Assembly (NCBI GenBank): GCA_964437445.1
Contig: CAYTGR010000009.1
Coordinates: 1-58,501, forward strand
Length of the DNA stretch: 58,501 bases
From: an uncultured Anaerolineales bacterium
GTDB lineage: Bacteria > Chloroflexota > Anaerolineae > B4-G1 > SLSP01
Direction: 5' to 3'
The notes under the pieces are model-generated. The model saw nothing but the letters and a program-made list of their open reading frames with translations. It was not told where the DNA came from and did not search any database. The position numbers were made by a program, and so were the translations under genes. Positions 1 through 51,932 of the stretch are shown here, one piece after another. Numbering within the stretch: the stretch's first letter is position 1; each line of letters begins with the position of its first letter.

Positions 1-86
1 CGTAGTGCCGCGCTTCAGCGTGGCTCAGACGGCGCTAAAGCGCCTCACTACAAACTTTTCACGCTATTTTCAGAGGAGGTGCCCCA
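1..86 (+). repeat. Copy of a dispersed intergenic repeat (module M2). An imperfect hairpin GTAGTG..GCGCTTCAGCG..GGCGCTAAAGCGCC..CACTAC is followed by ACTACAAA..TTTTCAGAGGAGGTG, which supplies the SD for radC.
   Basis: Near-identical sequence recurs at 28265-28312, 30556-30620 and 30675-30752, and a hairpin variant at 5691-5738. The element ends with the GGAGGTG RBS 6 nt before the radC ATG. Confidence 0.7.
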
Positions 87-2235: not shown

Positions 2236-5200
2236 ATGTTCAAACCTGTCAGCAATCAAGTAGATTTCGTGGCCCAGGAGCACGCCATGCTGGACTTCTG
2301 GCGAACGACGCGCGCGTTTGAGACGCTACGCGCGCTGCGTCGCGCAGCACCGCACTGGTCCTTCATTGACGGCCCTATCACCGCCAACAACCCCATGGGT
2401 GTCCATCACGGCTGGGGCCGTTCCTACAAGGACCTCTGGCAGCGTTTTTGGGCGATGCGCGGCTACCAGCTCCGCTACCAAAACGGCTTTGATTGCCAGG
2501 GCCTCTGGGTAGAAGTGGAAGTGGAGAAAGAAAAGGGGTTTAAGACCAAGCGGGAGATTGAAGCCCACGGGCTGGCCCGTTTTGTGCTGGATTGCAAGGC
2601 CCGCGTCCTGCGCCAGGCCGCCCGCCAGACTGAGCAATCTATCCGCCTGGGCTACTGGATGGACTGGAACGACCCCGCCACGCTCCGCTGGCTCGCCGAC
2701 AAATTGCAGGAAGACCCGCAGCAGCAGGTAACGGTTGCCGGGCCAGCCGGCCCCGTCACCGGCACCGTGGAACAGGTCGTCGGCCGGCTGGGCCTGCCGG
2801 AACTCGGCGGCTCTTATTTCACCTTTTCCACCGAGAACAACTACACCATCTGGTCTTTCCTCAAAAAGGTCTGGCAAAAAGGGTGGCTCTACAAAGGGCG
2901 CGATGTGATGCCCTGGTGCTCCCGTTGTGCCACCGGCCTCAGCCAGCACGAGATCGTCACCGAGGGCTACCAGGAGTTGACGCACGACTCGGTCGTGCTG
3001 CGCTTCCCGCTGCGGGGGCGTGAGCGCGAGGCGCTGCTCGTCTGGACAACCACGCCGTGGACGCTGACCAGCAACGTCGCCGCCGCCGTCGGACCGGCGC
3101 TGACCTACGTCCAGGTCCGGGCCGCCGACGGCTGGACCTACTACCTTTCCGAGGGGACGCTGCCCCGCGTGTTGAAGGGCAAGTATGAGATTGTGGCCCG
3201 GCTCAAGGGCGCGGACCTGGTCAGCTGGACTTACAGCGGCCCCTTTGACGACCTGTCCGCCGCGCAGCAGGCCGGCGTCCCGGCCCAGCATCGCGTCATC
3301 CCCTGGGACGCCGTCGGCGAGGAAGAAGGGACCGGCATCGTCCACATCGCTCCCGGCTGCGGTGCGGAGGACTTCCAGCTGGGGAAGGAATTTGGGCTGG
3401 CGGCGCTGGCCCCGCTGACGGAAGAAGGGCTCTTCCTGCCGGAGTTCGGCTGGCTGGCCGGGCGCGACGTCCACGAGGTTGCCCACGACATCTTCCACGC
3501 GCTGGAAGACAAGGGCCTGCTCTACCGGGTGGATGCTTACACACACCGCTACCCGGTCTGCTGGCGCTGCGCCTCACCGCTGGTCTTCCGCCTGGTGGAT
3601 GAGTGGTTTATCAGCATGGGGCCGCTCTACGACAAGCCGCGCGCCGAAGTCACGCCGGAGGAGAAAGAGCGCAGCCTGCGCTACCAGATCATGGATGTGG
3701 CCGATGAGATCCGGTGGATCCCCGAATTCGGCTACGAGCGCGAGCTGGACTGGCTGCGCAACATGTCCGACTGGATGATCTCCAAGAAACGGTACTGGGG
3801 GCTGGCCCTGCCGATCTGGGAATGTGCCTGCGGCCACCACGAGGTCATCGGCGACGAAGATGAACTCCACGCCCGCGCCATCGCCGGCTGGGAGGAGTTC
3901 GCCGGGCACACGCCCCACCGCCCCTACGTGGACGCGGTAAAAATCGCCTGTCCCCGCTGCGGCGGCGTGATGTCCCGCATCCCCGATGTCGGCAACCCCT
4001 GGCTGGATGCCGGCTCGGTCGCCTACTCCACGCTCCAATATCGCACCAACCGCGACTTCTGGGCGCAGTGGTTCCCGGCGAGCTGGATCAGCGAATCGTT
4101 CCCCGGCCAGTTCCGCAACTGGTTCTATAGCCTGATCACCATGAGCACCGTCTTTGAGCGGCGTGCACCGACCCAAATCATCCACGGCTACGCCACGCTG
4201 CTGGCCGAGGATGGCCGTCCCATGCACAAATCCTGGGGGAACGCCATCTGGTTTGACGACGCCGCCGAAAAGATGGGCGTAGATACCATGCGCTGGCTCT
4301 ATCTCAACCAGAAACTGGATGCCAACCTGCTCTTCGGCTACACCAAAGCCGATGAGACCCGCCGCCGCTTCCTCATCCCGCTGTGGAATGTCTATGCGTT
4401 CCTGGTGAACTATGCCCGCACAGATGATTGGCAGCCGCCAGCCGAATGGCGAATGGCGAATGGCGAGCAAATGGCGAATGGCGAATGGCAAATGGCAAAT
4501 GGCGAATGGCGAATGGAAGCAGAGAATTCGCCATGCGCAACACGCAATTTGTTGGATAAGTGGATTCTTGCCCGCCTTAAGGAGACCGTCGCGGCCATGA
4601 CAGCCGGTTACGAAGCCTACATCCCGCTGGATATCGCCACGCCCGCCGAGGCCTTCTTAGATGACCTGAGCAACTGGTACATCCGCCGCAGCCGCCGCCG
4701 TTTCTGGCTCAAACGCGGGCTGGATGCCGCCGCCGACGCCGACAAAGAGGCTGCTTACCGGACGCTTTACACCGTCCTGGTGACTTTCACCAAGCTGCTG
4801 GCGCCGGTCATTCCCTTCGTCACCGAGGCGATGTACCAGAATCTGGTGCGGGCCGTGGATGAGAGCGCGCCCGCCAGTGTCCACCACTGCGATTGGCCCA
4901 CCGCCGCCCCGCTGACTGCCGAGGAGCAAGAGCTGGTGGCGACGATGGCCGCCGTCCGGCAAGCGGCCGCGTTGGGCCACTCGGTGCGCGCCACGCAAAA
5001 CCTCAAGGTGCGCCAGCCGCTCGCACGCGCGTTGATCGCTGCTGATCCGCGCCGCCGGGCCGAACTGGCGCAGCTGCTGGACCTGCTGGCCGATGAGTTG
5101 AACGTCAAAGAGGTCGCCTTTGTGGAGCGCGAAAGCGAGCTGGTCACCTACCGCCTGTTGCCGGTGAACAAGACCTTAGGGCCGAAATTCGGCGCGCGCT

Positions 5201-5679
5201 TCCCGCTGGTGCGCAAGGCACTGGAAGCGGTGGACGCCACCGCCGCCGTGGCCCAACTGCACGCGGGCGAGCCGCTCACGCTAACCCTGGCCGATGGCAG
5301 TGAGGCGGTTCTCATGCCCGACGAGGTGCTCATCCAGAGCCAGCCGCGCGCCGGCTATGGCGTGGCCGGCGAAGGGGGCATCGTCGTCGCACTGGATACC
5401 ACGCTCACGCCGGAGTTGCTCGCCGAGGGACTGGCGCGCGAGGTCATCCGCCGGGTGCAGGACCTGCGCAAGGAGGCTGATTACGCCCTCACCGACCGCA
5501 TCGTCGTCCAGTACCGGGCCGCCGGGTCCCTGGCCGAAGCCATCACCGCCTTCCGCGCCACCATCGCCGGGGAAGTCCTGGCCGACGCTTTAGAGGCCGT
5601 GGACGCCCCCGTTGGCGATGCCACGTTGGAAGACACCGTGGAAGGACAACCGCTGCTCCTGGCAGTTAAACGCTCGTAA
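2236..5679 (+). CDS. ileS: Isoleucine--tRNA ligase, type 2 (eukaryote/archaeal-like IleRS)
   Basis: 1147 aa. The N-terminus MFKPV..FVAQEH..LDFWR is type-2 IleRS-like. Other motifs are HHGWGRSYKD (HIGH-like region), WTTTPWTLTSN, the editing domain, a KMSKS-like PMHKSWGN, and a C-terminal Cys-rich/anticodon-binding region. A strong SD (AAGGAGG) is present. Confidence 0.93.
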   Translation: MFKPVSNQVDFVAQEHAMLDFWRTTRAFETLRALRRAAPHWSFIDGPITANNPMGVHHGWGRSYKDLWQRFWAMRGYQLRYQNGFDCQGLWVEVEVEKEKGFKTKREIEAHGLARFVLDCKARVLRQAARQTEQSIRLGYWMDWNDPATLRWLADKLQEDPQQQVTVAGPAGPVTGTVEQVVGRLGLPELGGSYFTFSTENNYTIWSFLKKVWQKGWLYKGRDVMPWCSRCATGLSQHEIVTEGYQELTHDSVVLRFPLRGREREALLVWTTTPWTLTSNVAAAVGPALTYVQVRAADGWTYYLSEGTLPRVLKGKYEIVARLKGADLVSWTYSGPFDDLSAAQQAGVPAQHRVIPWDAVGEEEGTGIVHIAPGCGAEDFQLGKEFGLAALAPLTEEGLFLPEFGWLAGRDVHEVAHDIFHALEDKGLLYRVDAYTHRYPVCWRCASPLVFRLVDEWFISMGPLYDKPRAEVTPEEKERSLRYQIMDVADEIRWIPEFGYERELDWLRNMSDWMISKKRYWGLALPIWECACGHHEVIGDEDELHARAIAGWEEFAGHTPHRPYVDAVKIACPRCGGVMSRIPDVGNPWLDAGSVAYSTLQYRTNRDFWAQWFPASWISESFPGQFRNWFYSLITMSTVFERRAPTQIIHGYATLLAEDGRPMHKSWGNAIWFDDAAEKMGVDTMRWLYLNQKLDANLLFGYTKADETRRRFLIPLWNVYAFLVNYARTDDWQPPAEWRMANGEQMANGEWQMANGEWRMEAENSPCATRNLLDKWILARLKETVAAMTAGYEAYIPLDIATPAEAFLDDLSNWYIRRSRRRFWLKRGLDAAADADKEAAYRTLYTVLVTFTKLLAPVIPFVTEAMYQNLVRAVDESAPASVHHCDWPTAAPLTAEEQELVATMAAVRQAAALGHSVRATQNLKVRQPLARALIAADPRRRAELAQLLDLLADELNVKEVAFVERESELVTYRLLPVNKTLGPKFGARFPLVRKALEAVDATAAVAQLHAGEPLTLTLADGSEAVLMPDEVLIQSQPRAGYGVAGEGGIVVALDTTLTPELLAEGLAREVIRRVQDLRKEADYALTDRIVVQYRAAGSLAEAITAFRATIAGEVLADALEAVDAPVGDATLEDTVEGQPLLLAVKRS
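4444..4516 (+). repeat. About 10.4 copies of the heptanucleotide tandem repeat GAATGGC / AAATGGC, inside the ileS reading frame
   Basis: Sequence gaatggc x3, gagcaaatggc, gaatggc x2, aaatggc x2, gaatggc, gaatgg. It translates in-frame as ...PAEWRMANGEQMANGEWQMANGEWRME... with a 7-aa periodicity (3 units = 21 nt). It is followed by an inverted partial copy, gaattcgccat. Confidence 0.9.
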
Positions 5680-5690
5680 CGTGAATATTG

Positions 5691-5845
5691 GTAGTGAGGC
5701 GCTTGAGCGCGTTGGACGGCGCTCAAGCGCCTCGCTAAACCGGCGTTCACCAGCCGTGGGATAAAAATGTGAGCGGTGAGCAGGAAACAGAAACTTCTGC
5801 CTGCTGCTCTCTGCTCACCCCTTAACTGGTTTCTATATTTCAGAG
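5691..5845 (+). repeat. Copy of the dispersed intergenic repeat: M2 hairpin variant, then M1, then M3
   Basis: Perfect 12-bp hairpin GCGCTTGAGCGC-gttggacg-GCGCTCAAGCGC, then GGCGTTCACCAGCCGTGGGATAAAAATG (M1), then GTGAGCGGTGAGCAGG..CCTGCTGCTCTCTGCTCAC..TTAACTGGTTTCTAT (M3). M3 also occurs at 51850-51932. Confidence 0.7.
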
Positions 5846-5868
5846 AAGTTATAGACGCCCCAACACCA

Positions 5869-21430: not shown

Positions 21431-21478
21431 AGAGCGCGCTTCAGCGTGAGCAAGACTGAAGCGCGCTCTTTCTCGTGT
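21431..21478. terminator. Bidirectional terminator hairpin between convergent genes
   Basis: Perfect 14-bp stem AGAGCGCGCTTCAG-cgtgagcaaga-CTGAAGCGCGCTCT, followed by TTCTCGTGTTCG on the plus strand. Confidence 0.6.
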
Positions 21479-21502
21479 TCGTCGTCAGGCGCTTCAGCGC
21501 CG

Positions 21503-23287
21503 TCAGCTCAGCGGCCACAGGAGCGGCACCAGGATCAGCGCCAGCAGATAGACCACCCCCGTTAGCAAGCCACCCACGCGCAAGAAATCCCGGAAACGAT
21601 AGTGCCCCGGCCCGTACACCATCAGACAGGCCGGCTCCAGGGGCGTCAGATAGGAGGTGCTGGCGGCGATGGCGATCATGATAGCAAAGGGGCGCGGATT
21701 CCACCCCAACCGCGCTGCCGTCTCCAACGCTACCGGCACCACCACCGCCGCCGCCGCCTGGTTAGACATCGGTTGCGTCAACAGCACGGTCAGCACAAAG
21801 AAGCCGGTCAACAGCCAGCGCGGATGCCAGGTCCCCACCAGGGCAGCCAGCCCATCAGCCAGGAACTCCGCCGTACCGGTCGTCTGCATCGCCACCCCCA
21901 GCCCCAACATGCTGCCGATGAGGATCAAGACCTTCCAATCCACCTGCCGGTAAGCCTCCTCCGGGGTGATACAGCGCGTCAGGAAGACCAACAGCGCGCC
22001 AGCCAACATGGCCACCGGCAAGGCGAGTACCTTCAGCGCGCCCAGCAGCAACGCCCCGGCAAAAATTCCCGCCACCAGGATGGCCTGACGGCGGTTGAAG
22101 CGCCGGGGGTTGAGCACGCCCAACACATCCAACACGTTTTCAGTTTGCAGCGCCGCAATCTGCTTTTCATCGCCCTGCACCAGCAGCACATCCCCCATCT
22201 GCAAGCGTGTCTCCGCAATCTTACAGCGGACGGTGCCGGTGCGCCGGTTAATCGCCAGCACCTGCAAGTGGTAACGCTCGCGCATTTGCAACTCTTTGGG
22301 GGTGTGGCCGATGAACGGTGAGCGCGGCAACAGTACCACCTCGGCCAACCGCATCCCGGCTCCCTGCAAATCCCCATCGGAAAAGCGAGCATCGGCCTGG
22401 AGTTCCAGCCCGGTCACATCCCTGACCCGCAAGATCGCCGCCGAAGACCCCTCCACCAGCAGCGCATCCCCCACCTGCAACCGGGTCTCGGCGGGCGGAT
22501 CCAGCCGGCGCTCCCCCTGCCGGATAACCGCCAGCACAATCAGGTCGTAATCCCGGCCCAGAGCCGCCTGCGCCAGGGTGCGCCCGGCCAGGTTGGAGCC
22601 AGGGACAATCCGCAGCTCTGCCAGATAGGAGCGCAGGCCAAAGCTCTCGGTCAGCGTGGGGGCTACAGCCCGCTGTGGAAGCAACCGTTGCCCGGCGAAT
22701 TGCATATAGAGCACCCCCGCCACCAGAATGGGTAGCCCCACGGGGGTCAGTTCCAACATGCCTATGGGCGGCAGGCCGGCCTGCTGCATCAGGCCGCTCA
22801 CCACCACGTTGGTGGAGGTGCTGATCAGGGTCACGGAGCTGGCCAAGATCGCCGCAAAGGCCATCGGCATCAGCAAGCGCGCCGCGTTCAGGTTGGCGCG
22901 CCGGCTGAGACCCAGGATCACCGGCAAAAAGAAAGCCGCCGCGGCCGTATTGTTGATCAAGGCGCTCAACAGCCCCACCGCGATCATCGTGGCCGGCAAC
23001 AGCCGCTCCGGGTGGTTGCCGGTCACTTGCAAGAGCTGGCGGCTGACCACCTCCACAATCCCGGTCTGCATCAGCGCAGCCGTGATAATCAGCAGCCCCA
23101 GCAACAACATGACCGTATCGCTGCCAAAGCCGGCAAAGGCCTGCTCCGGCGGGACCAGGCGCAGCACGATGAGGGCCAGCAAGACCCCCAAAGCCGTCAC
23201 GTCGGGCGGTATCCACTCAAACGAAAAGAGGACCAGGGCCGCCACCAGGATAACCAGCAAGAGCAAAACAGGTAGTGTCATCGCCAT
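21503..23287 (-). CDS. DASS/SLC13-type (CitMHS/ArsB-superfamily) anion permease with two central TrkA-C (RCK_C) domains
   Basis: 594 aa. Multi-TM N- and C-terminal halves flank two soluble ~70-aa RCK_C-like repeats (LAEL..VPGSNLAGRTLAQAALGRDYDLIVLAVIRQGE and LAEVVLLPRSPFIGHTPKELQMRERYHLQVLAINR). Confidence 0.8.
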   Translation of the reverse strand: MAMTLPVLLLLVILVAALVLFSFEWIPPDVTALGVLLALIVLRLVPPEQAFAGFGSDTVMLLLGLLIITAALMQTGIVEVVSRQLLQVTGNHPERLLPATMIAVGLLSALINNTAAAAFFLPVILGLSRRANLNAARLLMPMAFAAILASSVTLISTSTNVVVSGLMQQAGLPPIGMLELTPVGLPILVAGVLYMQFAGQRLLPQRAVAPTLTESFGLRSYLAELRIVPGSNLAGRTLAQAALGRDYDLIVLAVIRQGERRLDPPAETRLQVGDALLVEGSSAAILRVRDVTGLELQADARFSDGDLQGAGMRLAEVVLLPRSPFIGHTPKELQMRERYHLQVLAINRRTGTVRCKIAETRLQMGDVLLVQGDEKQIAALQTENVLDVLGVLNPRRFNRRQAILVAGIFAGALLLGALKVLALPVAMLAGALLVFLTRCITPEEAYRQVDWKVLILIGSMLGLGVAMQTTGTAEFLADGLAALVGTWHPRWLLTGFFVLTVLLTQPMSNQAAAAVVVPVALETAARLGWNPRPFAIMIAIAASTSYLTPLEPACLMVYGPGHYRFRDFLRVGGLLTGVVYLLALILVPLLWPLS

Positions 23288-25490: not shown

Positions 25491-25546
25491 AAAAAGTGAA
25501 TAGTGAGCAGTGAGCAGTAAATCCTGCTCACTGCTTCCTGCTCACA
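25491..25546 (-). terminator. Rho-independent terminator of clpC, built from an M3-like hairpin
   Basis: GTGAGCAGTGAGCAG-taaatc-CTGCTCACTGCTTCCTGCTCAC. The minus-strand reading is followed by TTCACTTTTT. Confidence 0.6.
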
Positions 25547-25555
25547 ACGCCCGGC

Positions 25556-28015: not shown

Positions 28016-28216
28016 GGCCGTATCCTTATAATTATAATCGTGACTTAACCGCTACCCTTGGGACACGCTATAAAAAACGCTGCTGGCGCTGCGTTATAAT
28101 CAGCTCTTTGCTCTGTATTATATACCACCTGTGCAAGAAGCAAGAGCAAGCCCATGGACCGGCAAGTCCATTTGCCCCCCAGCCTGATTGACGTTATACT
28201 TGGGAGATGTCGTCAA

Positions 28217-28312
28217 GGGCATTCCCCCTGAACTGGCGTTCACCAGCAGGGAGATGAAAATTAGGTTCGTAGTGCCGCGCTTCAGCGCGGCTAAGACGGC
28301 GCTAAAGCGCAG
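28217..28312 (+). repeat. Copy of the dispersed intergenic repeat (M1 + M2), upstream of rfbD
   Basis: GGGCATTCCCCCTGAACTGGCGTTCACCAGCAGGGAGATGAAAATT + GGTTCGTAGTGCCGCGCTTCAGCGCGGCTAAGACGGCGCTAAAGCGC. Confidence 0.7.
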
Positions 28313-28441
28313 GAACGCCTGAAGACATCACTACAGTTCTACGAGGTTAAGCGTTACACAGAGTCCTGAAAATTAAAAAGCGCAAGGTAACCGCGACTTC
28401 CTAATCCCTAACCCCGATTTTCACAAGGAGAAATCATCAGG

Positions 28442-29281
28442 ATGAGAATTCTATTGACCGGCCACCGGGGCCAGCTGGGCCAGGCATTGCTGCCCGTGCT
28501 CGCGGCACACGACTTGTTGGGGGTAGACTACCCGGAAGGTGACATCACCGACCGGGCCAGCTTCCGGGCCACGGCGCAACAGTTCCGGCCCGACCTGATC
28601 CTCCATGCCGCGGCCATGACCGATGTGGACGGTTGTGCCCGCAATCCCGCCGAAGCCTACCGTGTCAACGGCCTGGGGACTCAAAACGTGGCCCTGACCG
28701 CCGCCGAGCTGGGCGCCGAGCTGCTCACCATCAGCACCAACGAGGTCTTTGACGGGCAGGCAACCGAGCCGTATCACGAATGGGCCACCACCCATCCCAT
28801 CAACGCCTATGGGCGCTCCAAGCTGGCCGGAGAATGGTACACCCTCCACCTGACCCCGCGCAGCTACGTCGTCCGCACGGCCTGGCTCTATGCACCCGGT
28901 GGACGGAACTTCCCCCACCGCATTCTCCGCCTGGCCGATGAACGCGGCAGCCTGCGCGTGGTTGCCGACGAGGTCGGCTCGCCCACCTATGTGGTGGACC
29001 TGGCCGCAGCGCTGGCCGCGCTGATCCAGACCCACGCTTACGGTGTCTACCACCTGGTCAATGCGGGTGTTGCCTCACGCTACGAATTCGCGCGCGAGAT
29101 CCTGCAGCGCAGCGGCCGGGGGCAGATTCCGGTGGAGCCGGTCACGCTGGCGGAGTTCAAGCGCGACAGTACCCCGCCGCCCTACGCCCCGCTGGCCAAC
29201 AACGCGGCGGCGGCGCTGGGCATTACCCTGCGGCCCTGGCAGGCCGCGTTAGCTGAGTTTCTGACCACCTATCCGCATTAA
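28442..29281 (+). CDS. rfbD: dTDP-4-dehydrorhamnose reductase
   Basis: MRILLTGHRGQLGQAL.. Rossmann N-terminus. 279 aa, RmlD-like throughout. Confidence 0.85.
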   Translation: MRILLTGHRGQLGQALLPVLAAHDLLGVDYPEGDITDRASFRATAQQFRPDLILHAAAMTDVDGCARNPAEAYRVNGLGTQNVALTAAELGAELLTISTNEVFDGQATEPYHEWATTHPINAYGRSKLAGEWYTLHLTPRSYVVRTAWLYAPGGRNFPHRILRLADERGSLRVVADEVGSPTYVVDLAAALAALIQTHAYGVYHLVNAGVASRYEFAREILQRSGRGQIPVEPVTLAEFKRDSTPPPYAPLANNAAAALGITLRPWQAALAEFLTTYPH

Positions 29282-29300
29282 CAGAAAAGAGTCTTTTCCC

Positions 29301-30287
29301 TTGTCCGCGGCCCAACCCTTGTTTTCGGTCATTGTGCCCAATTGGAACGGCGCGCAACACCTGCCCACCTGTCTGGAGAGCCTGCGCCGCCAGACCTGGC
29401 GCGACTTTGAGCTGCTGATCCCCGATAACGGCTCCACCGACGGTTCCCTGACGCTGTTGGCCGGCTATCCTGAAGCGCAGGTCTTGCCCCTGGGCCGCAA
29501 CCTCGGCTTCACCGGGGCCTGCAACGCCGGTTTGCGCGCCGCGCGGGGCGAGTTTTGCGTGCTGTTGAACAACGACACGGAGGCCGATCCGCGCTGGCTG
29601 GAGGAGCTGGCCGCCGCCTTTGCCCGCCACCCGGAAGTCGGATTGGTGGCCTCCAAAATGCGCCTTTTTGACCGGCGCGACACCTTCCACACGGCGGGCG
29701 ATTACGTCAGCCTGGACGGTTTGCCGCATAACCGGGGGGTCTGGGAACAGGACACCGGCCAATACGACCACGAAGCCTACGTCTTCAGCGCGTGTGGCGG
29801 GAGCGCAGCGTATCGCCGGGCGCTGTTAGACGAGCTCGGGCCGCTGGACGAAGACTTCTTTTTCTCCTGCGAGGACGTGGACCTGGCCTGGCGGGCGCAG
29901 CTGGCGGGTTGGCGCTGCCTCTTTGCCCCGCCAGCCATCGTTTACCACAAATTGAGCGCCACCGGCGGCGGGACGACGGCCTCTTTCTACGACGGGCGCA
30001 ACCGGCTCTACCTGTTAGTCAAGAATTACCCGGCCGACCTCTGGCACCGTTACAGGGGACGAGTCATTGCCGCCCAGCTGCGGATCGCCTGGACGGCGCT
30101 CCGGGCCTGGCGTGGGGCGGCCGCCCGCGCCACCCTGCGCGGCCAGCTGGCCGGTCTGGCCGCCCTGCCCCGGCTGCGCCGCAAGCGCGCGGGCATCCAG
30201 ACACGCCGCCGGGTGGAGATCGCTTATCTGGAGCGCCTGATGACCCCACCCTACGAAATCCCGGTGGAATCGTCCAGCTCGGGTTAG
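29301..30287 (+). CDS. Family 2 glycosyltransferase (rhamnosyltransferase-like)
   Basis: FSVIVPNWNGAQHLPTCLESLRRQTWRDFELLIPDNGSTDGS, with DxD/ED motifs. TTG start. Confidence 0.75.
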   Translation: MSAAQPLFSVIVPNWNGAQHLPTCLESLRRQTWRDFELLIPDNGSTDGSLTLLAGYPEAQVLPLGRNLGFTGACNAGLRAARGEFCVLLNNDTEADPRWLEELAAAFARHPEVGLVASKMRLFDRRDTFHTAGDYVSLDGLPHNRGVWEQDTGQYDHEAYVFSACGGSAAYRRALLDELGPLDEDFFFSCEDVDLAWRAQLAGWRCLFAPPAIVYHKLSATGGGTTASFYDGRNRLYLLVKNYPADLWHRYRGRVIAAQLRIAWTALRAWRGAAARATLRGQLAGLAALPRLRRKRAGIQTRRRVEIAYLERLMTPPYEIPVESSSSG

Positions 30288-30555
30288 CGTTGCAGCAGCC
30301 AGCGTCGTCTCAGTGGTTCAGTGTTTTTTGGTTCAGTGTTTTTAAGGAATTCACCGTGGACTGGCGTCCACCAGCGGTGGAATGCAAATTGGCTCGTAGT
30401 AACGCGCTTATGAAGTTTAACTAAATAATCCGGATATTTTGCTCTGAAGAGCTACCGCCAAATATGGGGCATCCTATGTCACCACCATCAAATTAGCCCA
30501 AATATGGGATAGGCTTCGCAAATAAGGATATCCGAATTTATTTGTCAAATTTCAT

Positions 30556-30752
30556 TAGCGCGTTGGACAGCGCTAAAGCGCCTGACTACAAGCCAAGCGC
30601 TATTTTCAAGGGAGATTTCATCCTTCCGCCTTCATCCTTTCAGAAGGCGTTCACCAGCCGTGGGATGAAAATTGGCTCGTAGTAACGCGCTTCAGCGCGT
30701 TGGACGGCGCTAAAGCGCCTGACTACAAGCAAAGCGCTATTTTCAAAGGAGG
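30556..30752 (+). repeat. Two tandem copies of the dispersed intergenic repeat (M2 partial, M1, M2), directly upstream of the patatin gene
   Basis: 30556-30620 is TAGCGCGTTGGACAGCGCTAAAGCGCCTGACTACAAGCCAAGCGCTATTTTCAAGGGAGAT. 30646-30752 is GGCGTTCACCAGCCGTGGGATGAAAATTGGCTCGTAGTAACGCGCTTCAGCGCGTTGGACGGCGCTAAAGCGCCTGACTACAAGCAAAGCGCTATTTTCAAAGGAGGTG. A further partial copy lies at 30351-30410. Confidence 0.8.
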
Positions 30753-30757
30753 TGACT

Positions 30758-31624
30758 ATGCCGGCCAAAACACCAGTGACGTTTGGATTAGCCTTAGGGG
30801 GCGGCGGGGCGCGCGGAGCGGCGCACATCGGCGTGCTGCGAGTGCTGGAACGTGAAGGGATCCCCCTCGGCCCGATTGCCGGCACCAGCATAGGCGGGGT
30901 GGTCGCCGTTCTCTACGCCGCCGGGCACACGCCCGACCAGATCGGCACACTGATGTCGCAGCTAGACCCCGACCTGTTGAAACTGGACCCGGAACGGCGG
31001 GCGCTCTTCTCGCTGGAACGGATCCGGCCGCGATTGGAAGAAGTCCTCGGCGAAGTGCGCCTGGAGCAGCTGGCGCGCCCCTGCGCCGTCGTGGCCGTGG
31101 ACGTAGACCACGGTGAGGAAGTCATCATCACCACCGGACCGGCCGTGGAGGCGATCCTGGCGACGGGCGCGGTGCCGGGCCTCTTCCCACCGGTACGGCT
31201 CCTGGGGCGCGTGTTGGTGGATGGCGGCATTCTCAACCCGGTCCCGGTCAATGCCGTGCGCCAGCTCGGGGCCACCGAGATCATCGCCGTCAACATCAAC
31301 AGCAACCGCTCCCGCCCTCACACCGAAATCGGCGGCGTCGTGGCGCTGCCAGCCTTAGGCGGCGGCAAGCCACTCATGGAGCTTTTCCCCTGGCGTGACG
31401 CCATCCGGCTCTACTCCAAAGCCAGCATGATCACCACGATTGAGCTGGCAGAACGCCGGCTGGCGATGGAGCAGCCCACCGTCGTCATCCGCCCGGCGGT
31501 GGGCGACATGGGTCTCTTAGACACCGAGACCATCCCGGCCGGGATCATGGCCGGCGAGGCCGCGACGCTGGCAGCGCTCCCCCAGATCAAAGCCCGGCTG
31601 CAGCGCCGCCGCCGCTTGCTTTAA
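30758..31624 (+). CDS. Patatin-like phospholipase
   Basis: Oxyanion motif GGGGARG and nucleophile GTSIGG (GxSxG). A catalytic Asp in a DGG context lies downstream. The SD AAGGAGGTG is supplied by the repeat element. Confidence 0.8.
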   Translation: MPAKTPVTFGLALGGGGARGAAHIGVLRVLEREGIPLGPIAGTSIGGVVAVLYAAGHTPDQIGTLMSQLDPDLLKLDPERRALFSLERIRPRLEEVLGEVRLEQLARPCAVVAVDVDHGEEVIITTGPAVEAILATGAVPGLFPPVRLLGRVLVDGGILNPVPVNAVRQLGATEIIAVNINSNRSRPHTEIGGVVALPALGGGKPLMELFPWRDAIRLYSKASMITTIELAERRLAMEQPTVVIRPAVGDMGLLDTETIPAGIMAGEAATLAALPQIKARLQRRRRLL

Positions 31625-31703
31625 GTCCCGTTCCCAACGTAAAAACAGTGCGGGGCGGATCTACATCCGCCCCGCACTGCACGAAAGGAGGTGCCACGAC
31701 GGC

Positions 31704-32003
31704 TCACTTGCTCTCGCCCGCGCTGGTAGCGGGAGCTTTAGCCTCACTCGGTTCTTTGGAGCTGGCAGCAGCGGCCGTATGCTCCTTGTCCTCTTTGCGA
31801 GTACCCGGAGTGGCCGTCGGCGACGCGCTCCGGTGATCGGTAACGTAAAAGCCGGATCCTTTGAAAATAATGCCGGCCGGCTGGATCAGGCGGATCACCT
31901 GCCCTCCACAATCCGGGCACTCCGTGATCGGAGCATCGGAAAAGGACTGGCGCCGCTCAAACCGCAGCCCACACGTTTTGCATTGATATTCGTATAGCGG
32001 CAT
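31704..32003 (-). CDS. FmdB-family zinc-ribbon protein (CxxC-x17-CxxC) with a disordered C-terminal tail
   Basis: MPLYEYQCKTCGLRFE..ITECPDCGG matches the FmdB/Zn-ribbon_8 signature. Confidence 0.7.
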   Translation of the reverse strand: MPLYEYQCKTCGLRFERRQSFSDAPITECPDCGGQVIRLIQPAGIIFKGSGFYVTDHRSASPTATPGTRKEDKEHTAAAASSKEPSEAKAPATSAGESK

Positions 32004-32115
32004 ACATCATCCTCCCTATATGACCCCTATTCCAAAAGTTATTATAGCCCGTTTAAGCCAATTGGCAAGACCCGCGCGGGTTGCTCTCTGGGCAATTTCA
32101 GGCATAATCCCTCCC

Positions 32116-34518
32116 ATGTTAAAACGAACCTGGTGGTTACTCTGGTTATTGATCCTGCTGGCAGGCTGCGCCGGCCTGGCACAACCTGTGACCCCTTCGC
32201 CGGCTGAGACCACGATGGCCTCCCTCCCTCTGTCGCCCACCGCGACGCCGGCACCAACCGCCACCCTCCCGCCAACGCCGACCCCAACGCCTGTGCCCGG
32301 CGTGTTGCTGGCCGAGGCCGAGCAGGCCTACGCTCTCGGCGATTACGAAGCCGCCGAAGCGCGCTTCCGGCAGGCCACGGCGGCCCCGCTGGCGCCGGAG
32401 GAGCGCAGGCAGGCCGTCCTGGGCCTGGGGCGGACGTTGCTGGCGCGCGGGGTCGCCAGTGAAGCCGTGGACCTGCTCCGCGCCTATCTGGCGGCCGCGC
32501 CGGCCGATCCCGCCGCCGGTGAAGCGCACCTCCTGCTGGCCAAGGCGTTGACCGCTGCCAGCGATCCCGCCGGGGCCGCCGACGAATACCGCATAGCGCT
32601 CACCGCTTACCCGACGCTGGCAGCTTACATCAACGAATGGTTAGGCGACGCTGAACGCGCCGCCGGCCGGGACACCGGCGCAGTGGAAGCCTATGGCGCT
32701 GCGCTGGCGGCCGCCGGGCGCACCGACCAACAGGTCTTCCTGCACGAAAAGCGCGCGCTGGCTTACACCGGGCTGCTCTCCTACACCGAAGCGCTGGCCG
32801 AGTATGACGCCATTCTGGCGCTCGCACAGATCCCCGGCTACCGCGCCCGGATCGGCTACCAGGCCGCGCAGACCGCGCTCCTGGCCGGCGACAGCACTGA
32901 GGCTTACCGGCGGCTGCAAGAGATCACCCTGGCTTACCCGGATCAAACTTACGGCTACGAGGCCCTGAAGTCGCTGGTGGAAGCGGCTCAGCCGGTAGAT
33001 GACTTACTGCGCGGCAAGATTGATTACTACGCCGAGGCCTACGGTCCCGCCGTGGAAGCTTTTTACCGCTACTTGCAGGCCACGCCGGATCATACCGGCG
33101 AGGCGCATTACTACGCGGGGCTGTCCTATCTGGAGGCCGGCAGCCCCGAACTGGCGTTGAAGGAATTTGACAGCCTGCTAAAGACCCATCCCGGTGACGA
33201 CTATTGGGGCAGCGCGCTCTACCGCAAGGGGCAGGCCCTCGCGGCGTTAGGCCGGGTGGACGAGGCCATCACTGCCTACCGGGCGCTGCCGGAAGCGCTG
33301 CCGGAACATCCCCGCGCCGCGGGAGCGCTCTGGGCGGCCGCCGAGTTGCTGGAGCAGCAAGGGGACCTGGCGGGGGCCGCCGCCGGCTTCCTGGACTTAG
33401 CCGCGCGCTATCCCAACGACGAGGGCGCGCCGGAGGCCCGGTTCCGCGCCGGGCTGGATGACTACCGCGCCGGTCTGTTACCGGAGGCGCAGGCCGCCTG
33501 GCTGGATTTGACGAGCTGGTACCCGGCCCACGAGCGGGCCGCCGCCGCCGGCTACTGGTTGGGCAAGACCTTTTTACAGACCGGGGCCACCCTCAGCGCG
33601 ACCGAGGCGCTGACGCAGGTGGTAAGGGCCGCACCGTGGGATTACTACGGGCTGCGCGCGGCCGAGCTGCTGGCCGGACAGACCCCGTTCAACGATTATA
33701 GCGCGCCGCGCCCTTGTGGGACTCTGGAGGAGCAGCAGGCCACCGAGACCTGGCTGGCCGGCTGGTTGGGGATCACCCAGACGGCCACCCTGGCCACGCT
33801 CTCGCCGGAGCTCCAGGCCGACCCGCGCCTGCAACGGGGGACGTTGCTCTTGCAGCTGGGCTACTTTGACGACGGCCGCACCGAATTGGAGGCCCTGCGT
33901 GCCGCCACCGCCGCCGAGGCCCTGACCCAATACCGGCTGGCGCTCTACTTTCGCGACCTCGGGCTCTATCGCTCCTCCATCCTCGCCGCCGGGACAGTCA
34001 TCCGGCTCTCCCCGGCGACCGATTTCAGCCAGGTGCCGCGCTTCCTCGGCTGCCTGAATTACCCCACCTATTACGCGGAGCTGGTGGAGAAAGAGGCCGC
34101 CGAATTTGCGCTGCCGCCGCTCTTCACCTACGCCCTTCTACGGCAGGAGAGCCTCTTTGAAGGCGCGGCGACTTCCTACGCGGCGGCCCATGGCCTCATG
34201 CAGGTGATCCCGGAGACGGGGCAGCAAATCGCGACGGCGCTTGGCTGGCCCCCGGATTACGAGACGGCGGACCTCTACCGCCCGCTGGTCAGCGTCCGCT
34301 TCGGCACCTGGTACCTGGCCCAGCAGCGAGACCGCTTCAACGGCAACCTCTTCGTAGCGATGGCCGGCTACAACGGCGGCCCCGGCAACGCCGCTCGCTG
34401 GTGGGAAGCCGCCGGTCAGGATACCGATCTGTTCGTGGAGCTGATCGGCTTCCAGGAGACGCGCACCTACGTAGAGCGAATCACGGAGCATTACGCCCGT
34501 TACCGGTGGTTATATTAA
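32116..34518 (+). CDS. Lipoprotein with TPR repeats and a C-terminal SLT-family lytic transglycosylase domain
   Basis: Lipobox LLAGCAG after MLKRTWWLLWLLIL. A Pro/Thr-rich linker and TPR-like helical repeats follow. The SLT core is LLRQESLFEGAATSYAAAHGLMQVIPETG..YNGGPGN. The start is moved to ATG 32116 so that the signal peptide is N-terminal. Confidence 0.75.
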   Translation: MLKRTWWLLWLLILLAGCAGLAQPVTPSPAETTMASLPLSPTATPAPTATLPPTPTPTPVPGVLLAEAEQAYALGDYEAAEARFRQATAAPLAPEERRQAVLGLGRTLLARGVASEAVDLLRAYLAAAPADPAAGEAHLLLAKALTAASDPAGAADEYRIALTAYPTLAAYINEWLGDAERAAGRDTGAVEAYGAALAAAGRTDQQVFLHEKRALAYTGLLSYTEALAEYDAILALAQIPGYRARIGYQAAQTALLAGDSTEAYRRLQEITLAYPDQTYGYEALKSLVEAAQPVDDLLRGKIDYYAEAYGPAVEAFYRYLQATPDHTGEAHYYAGLSYLEAGSPELALKEFDSLLKTHPGDDYWGSALYRKGQALAALGRVDEAITAYRALPEALPEHPRAAGALWAAAELLEQQGDLAGAAAGFLDLAARYPNDEGAPEARFRAGLDDYRAGLLPEAQAAWLDLTSWYPAHERAAAAGYWLGKTFLQTGATLSATEALTQVVRAAPWDYYGLRAAELLAGQTPFNDYSAPRPCGTLEEQQATETWLAGWLGITQTATLATLSPELQADPRLQRGTLLLQLGYFDDGRTELEALRAATAAEALTQYRLALYFRDLGLYRSSILAAGTVIRLSPATDFSQVPRFLGCLNYPTYYAELVEKEAAEFALPPLFTYALLRQESLFEGAATSYAAAHGLMQVIPETGQQIATALGWPPDYETADLYRPLVSVRFGTWYLAQQRDRFNGNLFVAMAGYNGGPGNAARWWEAAGQDTDLFVELIGFQETRTYVERITEHYARYRWLY

Positions 34519-51678: not shown

Positions 51679-51795
51679 CCCAAATTATAGCGTGAGTGGG
51701 AAGAGAAGCAAATGAGGTTAAAAGGGGGTTGGGAGCCGGCGTCAGGCCTACCCGGTGAGGGCAAACACTTGGGCCGGGGAAGCCGACAGATTTTC

Positions 51796-51932
51796 GGGGA
51801 ATTCCCCATGAACCGGCATTCACCAGCGGTAGGATGAAAGTAGGATGAAAGATGAGAGCAGTGAGCGGTGAGCAGGAAACAGGAACTGCTACCCGCTGCT
51901 CTCTGCCCACTCTTTAACTGGTTTCTATGTCG
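51796..51932. repeat. Copy of the dispersed intergenic repeat (M1 + M3)
   Basis: GGGAATTCCCCATGAACCGGCATTCACCAGCGGTAGGATGAAAGT... + GAGCAGTGAGCGGTGAGCAGGAAACAGGAACTGCTACCCGCTGCTCTCTGCCCACTCTTTAACTGGTTTCTAT. It parallels 28217-28260 and 5765-5840. Confidence 0.7.

Follow-up and report, generated by a model that had tools for sequence, protein, structure and literature searches.

GTAG-type REPINs in a polar gene-start frame: a probable mosaic repeat family of Anaerolineae

The intergenic regions of a 58,501-nt contig from an uncultured Anaerolineales bacterium (CAYTGR010000009.1; this whole stretch is called the window here) carry a dispersed family of short repeats, which is built of three modules, M1, M2 and M3, and a tail containing a Shine-Dalgarno (SD) sequence. 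We consider it likely that this family is composed of several small repeated elements in mosaic, much as are the bacterial interspersed mosaic elements (BIMEs) of enterobacteria, and that a doublet of repetitive extragenic palindromic (REP) sequences commonly occupies a slot between M1 and the tail. The hairpin core, M2, is a GTAG-type REP doublet forming a hairpin (REPIN) with a REP-associated tyrosine transposase (RAYT) of subclass 2.8, an already known kind of system that is found here in Anaerolineae. The surrounding frame appears to be a variant of mosaic REP elements with a new polar arrangement of M1, slot and tail. REPIN-RAYT systems have mostly been studied in Proteobacteria, and it is debated whether they are long-lived, vertically inherited replicators.

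A preliminary description of the window, made from the letters alone, had listed M1, M2 and M3 at seven loci and likened them to REPs or to miniature inverted-repeat transposable elements (MITEs). The modules are present at these places, all on the plus strand and far above chance. The seven segments themselves are real, but they lie in five intergenic regions and make up six units. The window contains five REPINs (10 arms) per 58.5 kb, all of them intergenic, and the tail motif TATTTTCARAGGAG occurs four times against 0.21 expected. One of these four, at 31856 on the minus strand within a Zn-ribbon coding sequence, was set aside as chance.

The family is not confined to the window. With a loosened M2 core pattern (GCGCTTNAGCG-N6-12-GNCGCTNAAGCGC; about 2 chance matches estimated), more than 92 loci were matched in a species-representative genome collection. 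They belong to metagenome-assembled genomes (MAGs) of Caldilineales, Anaerolineae, Ardenticatenaceae and Chloroflexia and to many filamentous cyanobacteria, including Calothrix, Rivularia, Microcoleus, Phormidium and Stigonema; several MAGs have 4-6 loci each among the matches listed. The M1 pattern matched more than 120 loci in one metagenome scan. About one third of these are chance matches in a conserved coding motif, which is probably the ATP-binding region of histidine kinases as judged by eye, and the remainder are genuine. M1 was not found in the 92 M2-core genome loci, and a blastn search of a plasmid collection with the focal region gave no match. These genome and metagenome matches of M2 and M1 refute a local duplication, an assembly artefact or a chance similarity confined to the window, to which we give a negligible probability: the adjacent units 4 and 5 (30339-30757; 91% repeat match) could have arisen by tandem duplication, but the modules occur in hundreds of unrelated public contexts, and independent assemblies of the same locus reproduce them.

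M2 as a GTAG-type REPIN with a cognate transposase

M2 is a REPIN consisting of two inverted GTAG-tagged REP arms, GGYTCGTAGTnn-GCGC-TTYA-GCGC, and the M2-core matches align in register as GGTTCGTAGTn-GCGCTTYAGCGC-(free loop)-GCGCTRAAGCGC-nACTACGAACC. Every arm in the window reads GTAGT, 1-3 nt and GCGC-TTYA-GCG(C/T), as do those of 56 elements compared across the phyla; a variant in Oscillatoriales carries GTTG in place of GTAG. Arms of this kind, in which a small GC hairpin comes after a GTAG head, are characteristic of GTAG-tagged REPs, and two of them in inverted orientation make up a REPIN (an "HH dimer"). The superfamily of GTAG-tagged REPs has been reported in Proteobacteria, Cyanobacteria and Chloroflexi among others (PMC3733652). 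In the five REPINs of the window the arms are 8-10 nt apart, and the folding energies are -30 to -40 kcal/mol (z -4.5 to -8.7). Identical loops recur in dispersed REPINs (GTTGGACG three times, GGCTMAGACG twice); like the cassette difference between strains and the REPIN within a RAYT pseudogene, both described below, they are indirect hints of mobilisation by a RAYT. REPINs are also found outside the M1-tail frame, both in tandem arrays and as single copies, and are therefore independent units.

Which transposase belongs to this REP? A profile built on the RAYT/TIRYT sequences of the supplement of PMC3733652 matched 2 of 3456 open reading frames (ORFs) in the window and the 92 M2-core loci, each of them directly adjoining the hairpin. 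The RAYT gene of one Anaerolineae MAG (L004) is flanked by a left and a right arm, and complete REPINs follow closely on the outer side of these arms; this is a REPtron layout. Stigonema (L043) has a homologous pseudogene that is interrupted by an element containing a REPIN. The L004 protein is matched by the NCBIfam equivalog NF047646 REP_Tyr_transpos (83 bits against a cut-off of 80) and contains the motifs LPNHYHLLV (NHYH) and YIHFNPVKHGW as well as the proline-rich RGYPPHSPPHP. It has 1249 homologues of 198-210 aa, 65-77% identical between Anaerolineae and cyanobacteria, some of which are named RAYT by NCBI and for several of which PF01797 is recorded. TnpA_REP subclass 2.8 has been described on eight cyanobacterial genes by its HYH motif, Pro-rich N-terminus, length of about 199 aa, some REP-interrupted genes and long GT[AG]G REP flanks; it was limited to Cyanobacteria in that sample, with close relatives in unrelated phyla (PMC6006769). 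By these traits, the L004-type RAYT fits this subclass (Quentin, 2018); the host here is an anaerolinean, whereas the published genes are cyanobacterial.

Inverted arms of the M2-type REP bracket the RAYT gene at six of six independent loci (L004, L095, L097, L220, L222 and L224). Across these loci the small REP stem covaries (GCGC/GCGC, GCAC/GTGC, CCGC/GCGG, GGAC/GTCC and CTCGC/GCGAG), and the GGTTCGTAGT head and the TTYA tetraloop are unchanged. Paired changes in the stem with a fixed head and loop indicate that the small REP hairpin is the constrained structural unit, as would be expected from published work in Escherichia coli if a Y1 transposase recognises it. Because the REP head, the tetraloop and a 65-77% identical RAYT are common to Chloroflexota and filamentous cyanobacteria, the co-evolution of transposase and hairpin can be compared across phyla. 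At one of the six loci (L220, 2204-11702), the subclass-2.8 RAYT and an array of six REPINs lie between pglY/brxC-like and pglZ genes of a BREX/Pgl-type defence locus.

With REPIN-RAYT systems (Bertels and Rainey, 2011; Di Nocera et al., 2013, PMC3733652; Quentin et al., 2018, PMC6006769), M2 shares the 5' GTAG foot with a short GC-rich hairpin, the inverted doublet with a long hairpin, the dispersed intergenic copies, tandem clusters and singlets, and a cognate Y1/HUH gene that is flanked, and sometimes interrupted, by its own REP. There are also differences: the REP head and tetraloop are here nearly identical across two phyla, published REPs are mostly found 3' of genes while the REPIN here often occupies a defined slot on their 5' side, and the RAYT was not seen in this host. 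The REP may belong to one of the numbered families of PMC3733652 (e.g., GTAG-12).

It was proposed in the preliminary description that the hairpin has been under selection, since both of its stems seemed to covary. The data do not support this. The change between C.A and G-C falls on the third base of the TTYA tetraloop of each arm, where 59% of 56 non-redundant elements have a Watson-Crick pair, 23% have G.T and 18% a mismatch (non-Watson-Crick, 41%) and where the two arms vary almost independently (Fisher p = 0.10; p = 1.0 for a polymorphic outer-stem site). The difference between GTAGTG/CACTAC and GTAGTA/GACTAC separates two REPIN subfamilies and is not a compensated pair. The stem cells of the same 56 elements are Watson-Crick in 89% of cases versus 71% in column shuffles, a high value that is due to lineage-specific arm variants present on both sides and is trivial if the arms are inverted copies of one REP. 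The long hairpin of the REPIN is present as a structure, with no evidence of selection on it as RNA.

Upstream of a REPIN in Stigonema (L048, about 1115-1150), ..GCGGATGAACGCAGATGAAATTGG resembles the M1 3' end GGATGAAAATTGG at an equal distance to the GTAG head; this may be chance or a shared junction preference.

A polar frame with exchangeable cassettes

The modularity noted earlier can be sharpened to an order of M1, exchangeable cassette and tail. The frame runs from ..TATTTTCAGAGGA and ATTCCCCATGAACTGGCGTTCACCAGCGGTGGGATGAAAAT (M1, which reads ..AGGAATTyyyCATGAACTGGCGTTCACCAGCGGTGGRATGAAAAT) through the cassette to GCTATTTTCARRGGAGG (the tail, also given as TATTTTCARRGGAGG), often followed by a start codon. 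Among 77 unique M1 copies, the cassette is a REPIN in 22 (6 of them interrupted), M3 in 12, a "type C" hairpin in 12 and an IS110 element in 11, and the remaining 20 are palindromic blocks or heptamer repeats of several kinds. In 44 of 48 cases, 52-86 nt separate M1 from the tail, most often 73.

Of the 77 M1 units, 75 lie between genes. The first gene downstream runs in the same direction as the unit in 40 cases and against it in 12 (binomial p = 1.3e-4); upstream neighbours are divided 34 to 30. The unit is thus polar and lies preferentially just 5' of genes. When tails with another M1 behind them are excluded, 24 of the 58 that remain (41%) have, 4-13 nt further on, the ATG of an ORF of 60 aa or more, against 4.2% at random positions (p = 5e-18). 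That the family supplies SD sequences to unrelated genes, as the preliminary description had it, is therefore well supported as a positional fact, and translation would start with the GGAGG of the tail serving as the SD sequence of the gene. In the window this applies to radC and the patatin gene. The motif preceding rmlD (rfbD), a gene that had been counted with them, is a separate, indel-bearing, tail-like sequence about 80 nt past the REPIN. With REPINs placed in a polar slot by the ribosome-binding site of many genes, a natural system is available to ask about effects on expression.

A comparison with sister-strain contigs (L193 and L094), 96-98.5% identical to the window over 28144-32198, has revealed which part of the unit is labile. 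Before an identical patatin gene and SD sequence, M3 stands in place of the REPIN of the window, and the breakpoints of the swap fall exactly after ..GGGATGAAAAT and before CTATTTTCA.., that is, at the borders of the frame. The cassette has been swapped within a frame that stayed in place, which shows the former to be labile and the latter stable. In the neighbouring unit, window and sister strain both have an insert at the same GCGCTT^ site with the same termini, the cores being unrelated and the REPIN loop different. Short-read contigs assembled independently for the patatin locus stop within the repeat unit (L093, 1-34; L094, 1-86); the repeats break metagenome assemblies exactly at gene starts.

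On the basis of these results the following process can be proposed. A REP comprises the head GGYTCGTAGT, 1-3 nt, a GC stem of 4-6 bp and the TTYA tetraloop, and two of them, inverted around a free spacer of 6-12 nt, fold into a hairpin of about 22-25 bp. Such REPINs would be mobilised in trans by a single-copy HUH/Y1 RAYT (TnpA_REP subclass 2.8), which, to judge from work on the RAYT of E. coli, would recognise the small REP hairpin and the GTAG foot on single-stranded DNA, cut it and rejoin it. In the lineage of the window the REPIN commonly fills the slot between M1 and the tail, as M3 or other hairpin or heptamer-repeat cassettes of 52-86 nt can do. The polar unit lies preferentially just 5' of genes, where its position is plain and the use of the tail GGAGG as SD sequence is presumed. 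Cassettes differ between near-identical strains and have most probably been exchanged by recombination or gene conversion between the many copies of M1 and the tail, or by excision and insertion of REPINs at GTAG/CTAC. The repeats are in turn targets of other mobile DNA, namely a MITE in the tetraloop and an IS110-family element at the junction of M1 and cassette.

The frame resembles known arrangements in part. Like BIMEs of E. coli and its relatives, it makes ordered intergenic combinations of REPs and other short motifs that vary by locus and are targets of insertion sequence (IS) elements; unlike them, it has an M1 and a tail of unrelated sequence, is polar towards the downstream gene, bears SD sequences and has a central element exchangeable with non-REP hairpins. 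Correia elements of Neisseria, ERIC/IRU and RUP are likewise small non-coding repeats of 5' regions that provide expression signals and are polymorphic between strains, but they have terminal inverted repeats (TIRs) and target-site duplications (TSDs), and the M1-tail frame has neither. Literature searches with the sequence strings of M1, M2, M3 and the tail returned unrelated primers only, and searches by concept for SD-bearing MITEs in Chloroflexi returned nothing specific. A polar M1-slot-tail frame with exchangeable hairpins and an SD sequence before genes appears to be undescribed in the searchable literature.

Other explanations of the arrangement were set aside. The plus-strand bias could be a replication-strand effect of Y1 transposition, but co-orientation of the units with the downstream genes, which are mostly on the plus strand, is simpler. 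Integron attC sites were dismissed on inspection, as the copies are single and lie in intergenic regions between housekeeping genes, with no core-site motif and no integrase. The same holds for CRISPR and terminator readings, there being no arrays, no cas genes and no U-tracts behind the hairpins.

The nature of the unit and of M1

Several points weigh against the mosaic with REPINs mobilised by the subclass-2.8 RAYT. A RAYT of this subclass was found neither in the window nor in the 120 M1-bearing metagenome loci listed, and the only RAYT among the M1-bearing loci (L153) is of a different type with a different REP; mobilisation in trans is thus presumptive for this host, and its REPINs could be relics. 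All six RAYT loci lack M1 and the tail, which leaves both the frame and M3 unexplained by the RAYT. Insertions made independently into a landing pad would not be expected to give so narrow a range of cassette lengths (52-86 nt). No pair of filled and empty orthologous sites was found among 220 loci, and the window and L193 differ in the cassette and not in its presence. Finally, the copy numbers are lower bounds, and the counts across genomes disregard the relatedness of the copies. By inspection only, one slot (L109) is possibly empty. The RAYT gene of L153 (4184-4768; NF047646, 93 bits) is bracketed by a GTAG REP, CGTAGCCTAGCCCCTTGTGGGCGTT, and its flanks also carry short tandem repeats of the GGGCACACGAC type that resemble "type C" cassettes.

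Is the unit then a single element? It is conceivable, although clearly less probable than a mosaic, that M1, cassette and tail form one non-autonomous mobile element, a MITE- or PATE-like "translation-initiation cassette" with the cassettes as internal variants or passengers, and that by some other enzyme it inserts into SD regions and regenerates them. The unit departs from a classical MITE in having no TIRs and no variable TSD; its ends share a constant direct repeat, TATTTTCAGAGGA, and neither an associated transposase nor an empty orthologous site was found. However, the same 13 nt precede the ATG of M1 and the ATGs of host genes, and of the two copies the downstream one is better preserved, as expected of an element-borne sequence compared with a target. 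Tandem units (tail-M1-cassette-tail-M1-cassette-tail), the narrow cassette length, the strong polarity towards gene starts and the presence of the unit, with differing sets of cassettes, in several separate populations of Anaerolineae also speak for a single element. The mosaic is favoured by REPINs outside the frame, by the 98%-identical strain in which the cassette alone differs and the frame stays, and by places where M1 and the tail are apart (5735-5768; 51791-51928, without a tail).

M1 could itself contribute to translation. At positions left unconstrained by the search pattern, it has a conserved AGGAAT, a variable spacer of 5-6 nt and then ATG (44 copies), ATT (21), CTG or TTG. The frame after this start position continues for eight codons to TGA or TAA, giving a mini-ORF MNWRSPAVG followed by a stop, and the most variable site of the core is the four-fold site of codon 7. 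An SD sequence with a mini-ORF of nine codons in a host-gene-like SD context is only suggested by this pattern, because the core was set by ascertainment through the search pattern and one third of the copies have no ATG.

A cis-acting regulatory RNA in the 5' untranslated region (5'-UTR), with this translated leader ORF, a stable hairpin and the SD sequence of the gene, would act on translation or on the stability of the mRNA, through coupling, attenuation or protection by the 5' hairpin. We regard it as improbable, and the mobile cis-regulatory RNA or attenuator of the preliminary description is not borne out. RNAalifold gave no consensus fold for 49 distinct copies of M1 (2 invariant pairs, -1.6 kcal/mol, covariation term 0), M1 alone on the plus strand folds no better than its shuffles, and a structured RNA was rejected for M1. 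The conserved AGGAAT with its spacer, the mostly ATG start, the TGA or TAA stop and the variable four-fold site of codon 7 agree with a leader ORF, but ATT stands at the start position in one third of the copies, and the conservation is an effect of ascertainment where the search pattern fixed the core, which it did at most positions. Similarly, the cassettes include very stable hairpins (z -4.5 to -8.7) but are interchangeable, also between strains, and some of them are heptamer-repeat blocks and not hairpins. The SD sequence of the unit is unpaired in the minimum-free-energy fold, while the centroid pairs part of the tail region. Units face genes, and one lies downstream of a sigma-70-like promoter match (28172-28200, just 5' of the M1 copy at 28214-28262), which would suit a 5'-UTR; against this, many copies, probably hundreds per genome, stand before unrelated genes, and in some cases no gene follows (5769-5850, 51791-51928). 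Rfam 15 at gathering thresholds had no match in the window or in L114 and L118, and permissive thresholds over 30300-30800 gave sub-threshold chance matches only. A sigma-70 promoter within M1 was also rejected, as no match was found there.

It is very unlikely that M1 is a dispersed protein-binding DNA site that wires many genes to one regulator. M1 contains a GAAC-N4-GTTC palindrome (TGAACTGGCGTTCA, 5+4+5), which may resemble an SOS (Cheo) box of the Gram-positive/Chloroflexi type, a LexA box. M1 is conserved as sequence and not as an RNA fold, one copy precedes radC, and a window copy has a symmetric double change to GGAC..GTCC at 30356-30371. Nevertheless, about one third of the copies have TAAC in the left half-site with the right half unchanged, the left half is wholly replaced in variant ii (whose 5' half consists of TTCATCC heptamers), and hundreds of sites would titrate a repressor.

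We hold it possible, if doubtful, that M1, slot and tail are a mobile polar "translation-initiation module" of some Anaerolineae, with an SD sequence and a nine-codon leader ORF, a slot of constrained length and a second SD sequence. If so, the slot would be open to every mobile element that forms a hairpin, among them REPINs, M3 and heptamer-repeat cassettes, and the second SD sequence would be installed before host genes. A selfish REPIN/RAYT system and host 5'-UTRs would then be structurally interlocked, and the expression of many, perhaps hundreds of, genes would be shaped by it.

Other mobile DNA and features of the window

The repeats of the mosaic have themselves been entered by other mobile DNA. 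A MITE at 30410-30555 splits one M1-M2-tail unit, of which the segments 30351-30410 and 30556-30620 are the halves. It represents a family of AT-rich elements of 146-174 nt with TIRs of about 24-27 nt and termini ATGAAGTTTGAAAATTAAATTCGG, which occurs in at least 20 distinct flank contexts. The insertion is always within the REP tetraloop, GCGCTT^CAGCGC, and by inspection in both orientations relative to M1. The joined flanks restore GCGCTTCAGCGC exactly, and thus there is no TSD. Copies were found in L102, L114, L180, L193, L212, L213 and others, with a 99%-identical copy at another locus (L125), and the core of the sister-strain copy contains a second GTAG REPIN type (GGTAGTAACGCCTTCAGGCGTT..). 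No autonomous parent of this MITE was found.

Exactly at the M1/cassette junction (..GGATGAAAATAG^GGGGGTGCACAG..), an IS110-family RNA-guided transposase element is inserted in at least 11 contigs. Its copy in L114 (1053-2521, minus strand) has a 412-aa ORF (NF033542, 301 bits) with a non-coding leader of about 230 nt. The junction insertion was also seen in L105, L118, L124, L129, L150, L157, L163, L169, L172, L182 and L202, and most of the contigs bearing it break a few tens of bases into the element. This sequence, first classed as "type D" after M1 at 11 loci, was considered as the autonomous parent of the unit and rejected, being an unrelated junction-targeting element. Insertion into REPs is known for IS1397 and ISKpn1, which enter REP loops, and for elements of the IS110/IS1111 family. 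The MITE, always in the REP tetraloop, and the IS110-family element, always at the junction, resemble these; the MITE differs in its long TIRs and in having no TSD and no autonomous parent found. REPINs, tetraloop MITE and IS110-type RNA-guided element are thus nested small mobile elements that use one another as landing sites.

The stretch carrying the repeats is an ordinary chromosomal segment with radC, ileS and genes for a ClpB-type ATPase, RmlD, a GT2 glycosyltransferase, a patatin-like lipase and two large histidine kinases. A search for tRNA and tmRNA found none. The host is an anaerolinean; the best database identity of its isoleucyl-tRNA synthetase (IleRS) is 79%, and every named relative is an Anaerolineae or Chloroflexota MAG. 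The features are collected in Table 1.

Table 1. Repeat units and associated elements in the window (coordinates of the whole stretch)
Feature	Position	Strand	Remarks
REPIN copy 1 (M2, subfamily B)	1-56	+	GTAG head 2-5, loop GGCTCAGACG, CTAC foot 48-51
Tail/SD block GCTATTTTCAGAGGAGGTG	63-81	+	5 nt ahead of radC ATG at 87
REPIN copy 2	5691-5737	+	perfect 19-bp hairpin, TTGA/TCAA loop variants, degenerate 3' foot
M1 core, 3' part only	5735-5768	+	fused with foot of REPIN copy 2
M3 hairpin cassette	5769-5836	+	degenerate tail CTATATTTCAGAGAAG to 5850; no gene start behind
M1 copy	28214-28262	+	CTG at mini-ORF start position
REPIN copy 3 (subfamily B)	28265-28335	+	18-nt insert 28311-28328 between inner arm and CTAC foot
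Tail-like SD block GATTTTCACAAGGAG	28416-28430	+	11 nt ahead of rmlD ATG at 28442
M1 copy of unit 4	30339-30389	+	GTG at start position, symmetric GGAC..GTCC variant, stop codon gone
Left REP arm of REPIN copy 4	30390-30409	+	ends at first half of tetraloop, ..GCGCTT^
AT-rich MITE, 146 nt	30410-30555	.	in REP tetraloop; TIRs about 24-27 nt, ATGAAGTTTAAC.. / ..GTCAAATTTCAT
Rest of REPIN copy 4	30556-30594	+	second half of left arm, loop GTTGGACA, right arm, CTAC foot
Tail of unit 4	30597-30614	+	next M1 behind, no gene
M1' (variant ii)	30612-30672	+	5' half of TTCATCC heptamers, complementary to own GGATGAA 3' end
REPIN copy 5 (subfamily A)	30673-30730	+	loop GTTGGACG; M3 instead in sister strains L193, L094
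Tail/SD block GCGCTATTTTCAAAGGAGGTG	30734-30754	+	3 nt ahead of patatin ATG at 30758
M1 copy	51791-51850	+	tandem duplication of GTAGGATGAAA at 3' end (51829-51850)
M3 hairpin cassette, second copy	51861-51928	+	90% identical to 5769-5836; no tail after ..GGTTTCTAT

The M1 of the first unit lies just upstream of the window: in an overlapping metagenome contig (L162), a degenerate M1 is found directly 5' of the REPIN. REPIN copy 2 begins 12 nt past the ileS stop codon and folds at -40.3 kcal/mol (z -8.7). The last M1 copy is located between two minus-strand histidine-kinase genes, with no co-directional gene behind it.

Some further repeats were noticed. A tandem duplication of GGTTCAGTGTTTTT at 30316-30345, between the glycosyltransferase stop codon and M1, is present in the sister strain too. 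At 25500-25550, between two minus-strand ORFs, an M3-like hairpin of GTGAGCA heptamers (ATAGTGAGCAGTGAGCAG..CTGCTCACTGCTTCCTGCTCAC) occurs without M1 or tail; CTGCTCA heptamers also flank the REPIN in a cyanobacterial locus (L028). Two short palindromes of the GCGCTTCAGCG type without a GTAG head, at 21435-21504 between a convergent ORF of 1051 aa and a CitMHS transporter gene, may be degenerate REP singlets. Within ileS (2236-5679), a GGCGAAT/GGCAAAT heptanucleotide tract at 4442-4516 encodes, in frame, a repeated ANGEW(R/Q)M peptide; it separates the catalytic from the anticodon-binding domain of IleRS and is 16 residues longer than in the closest homologue (79% identical).

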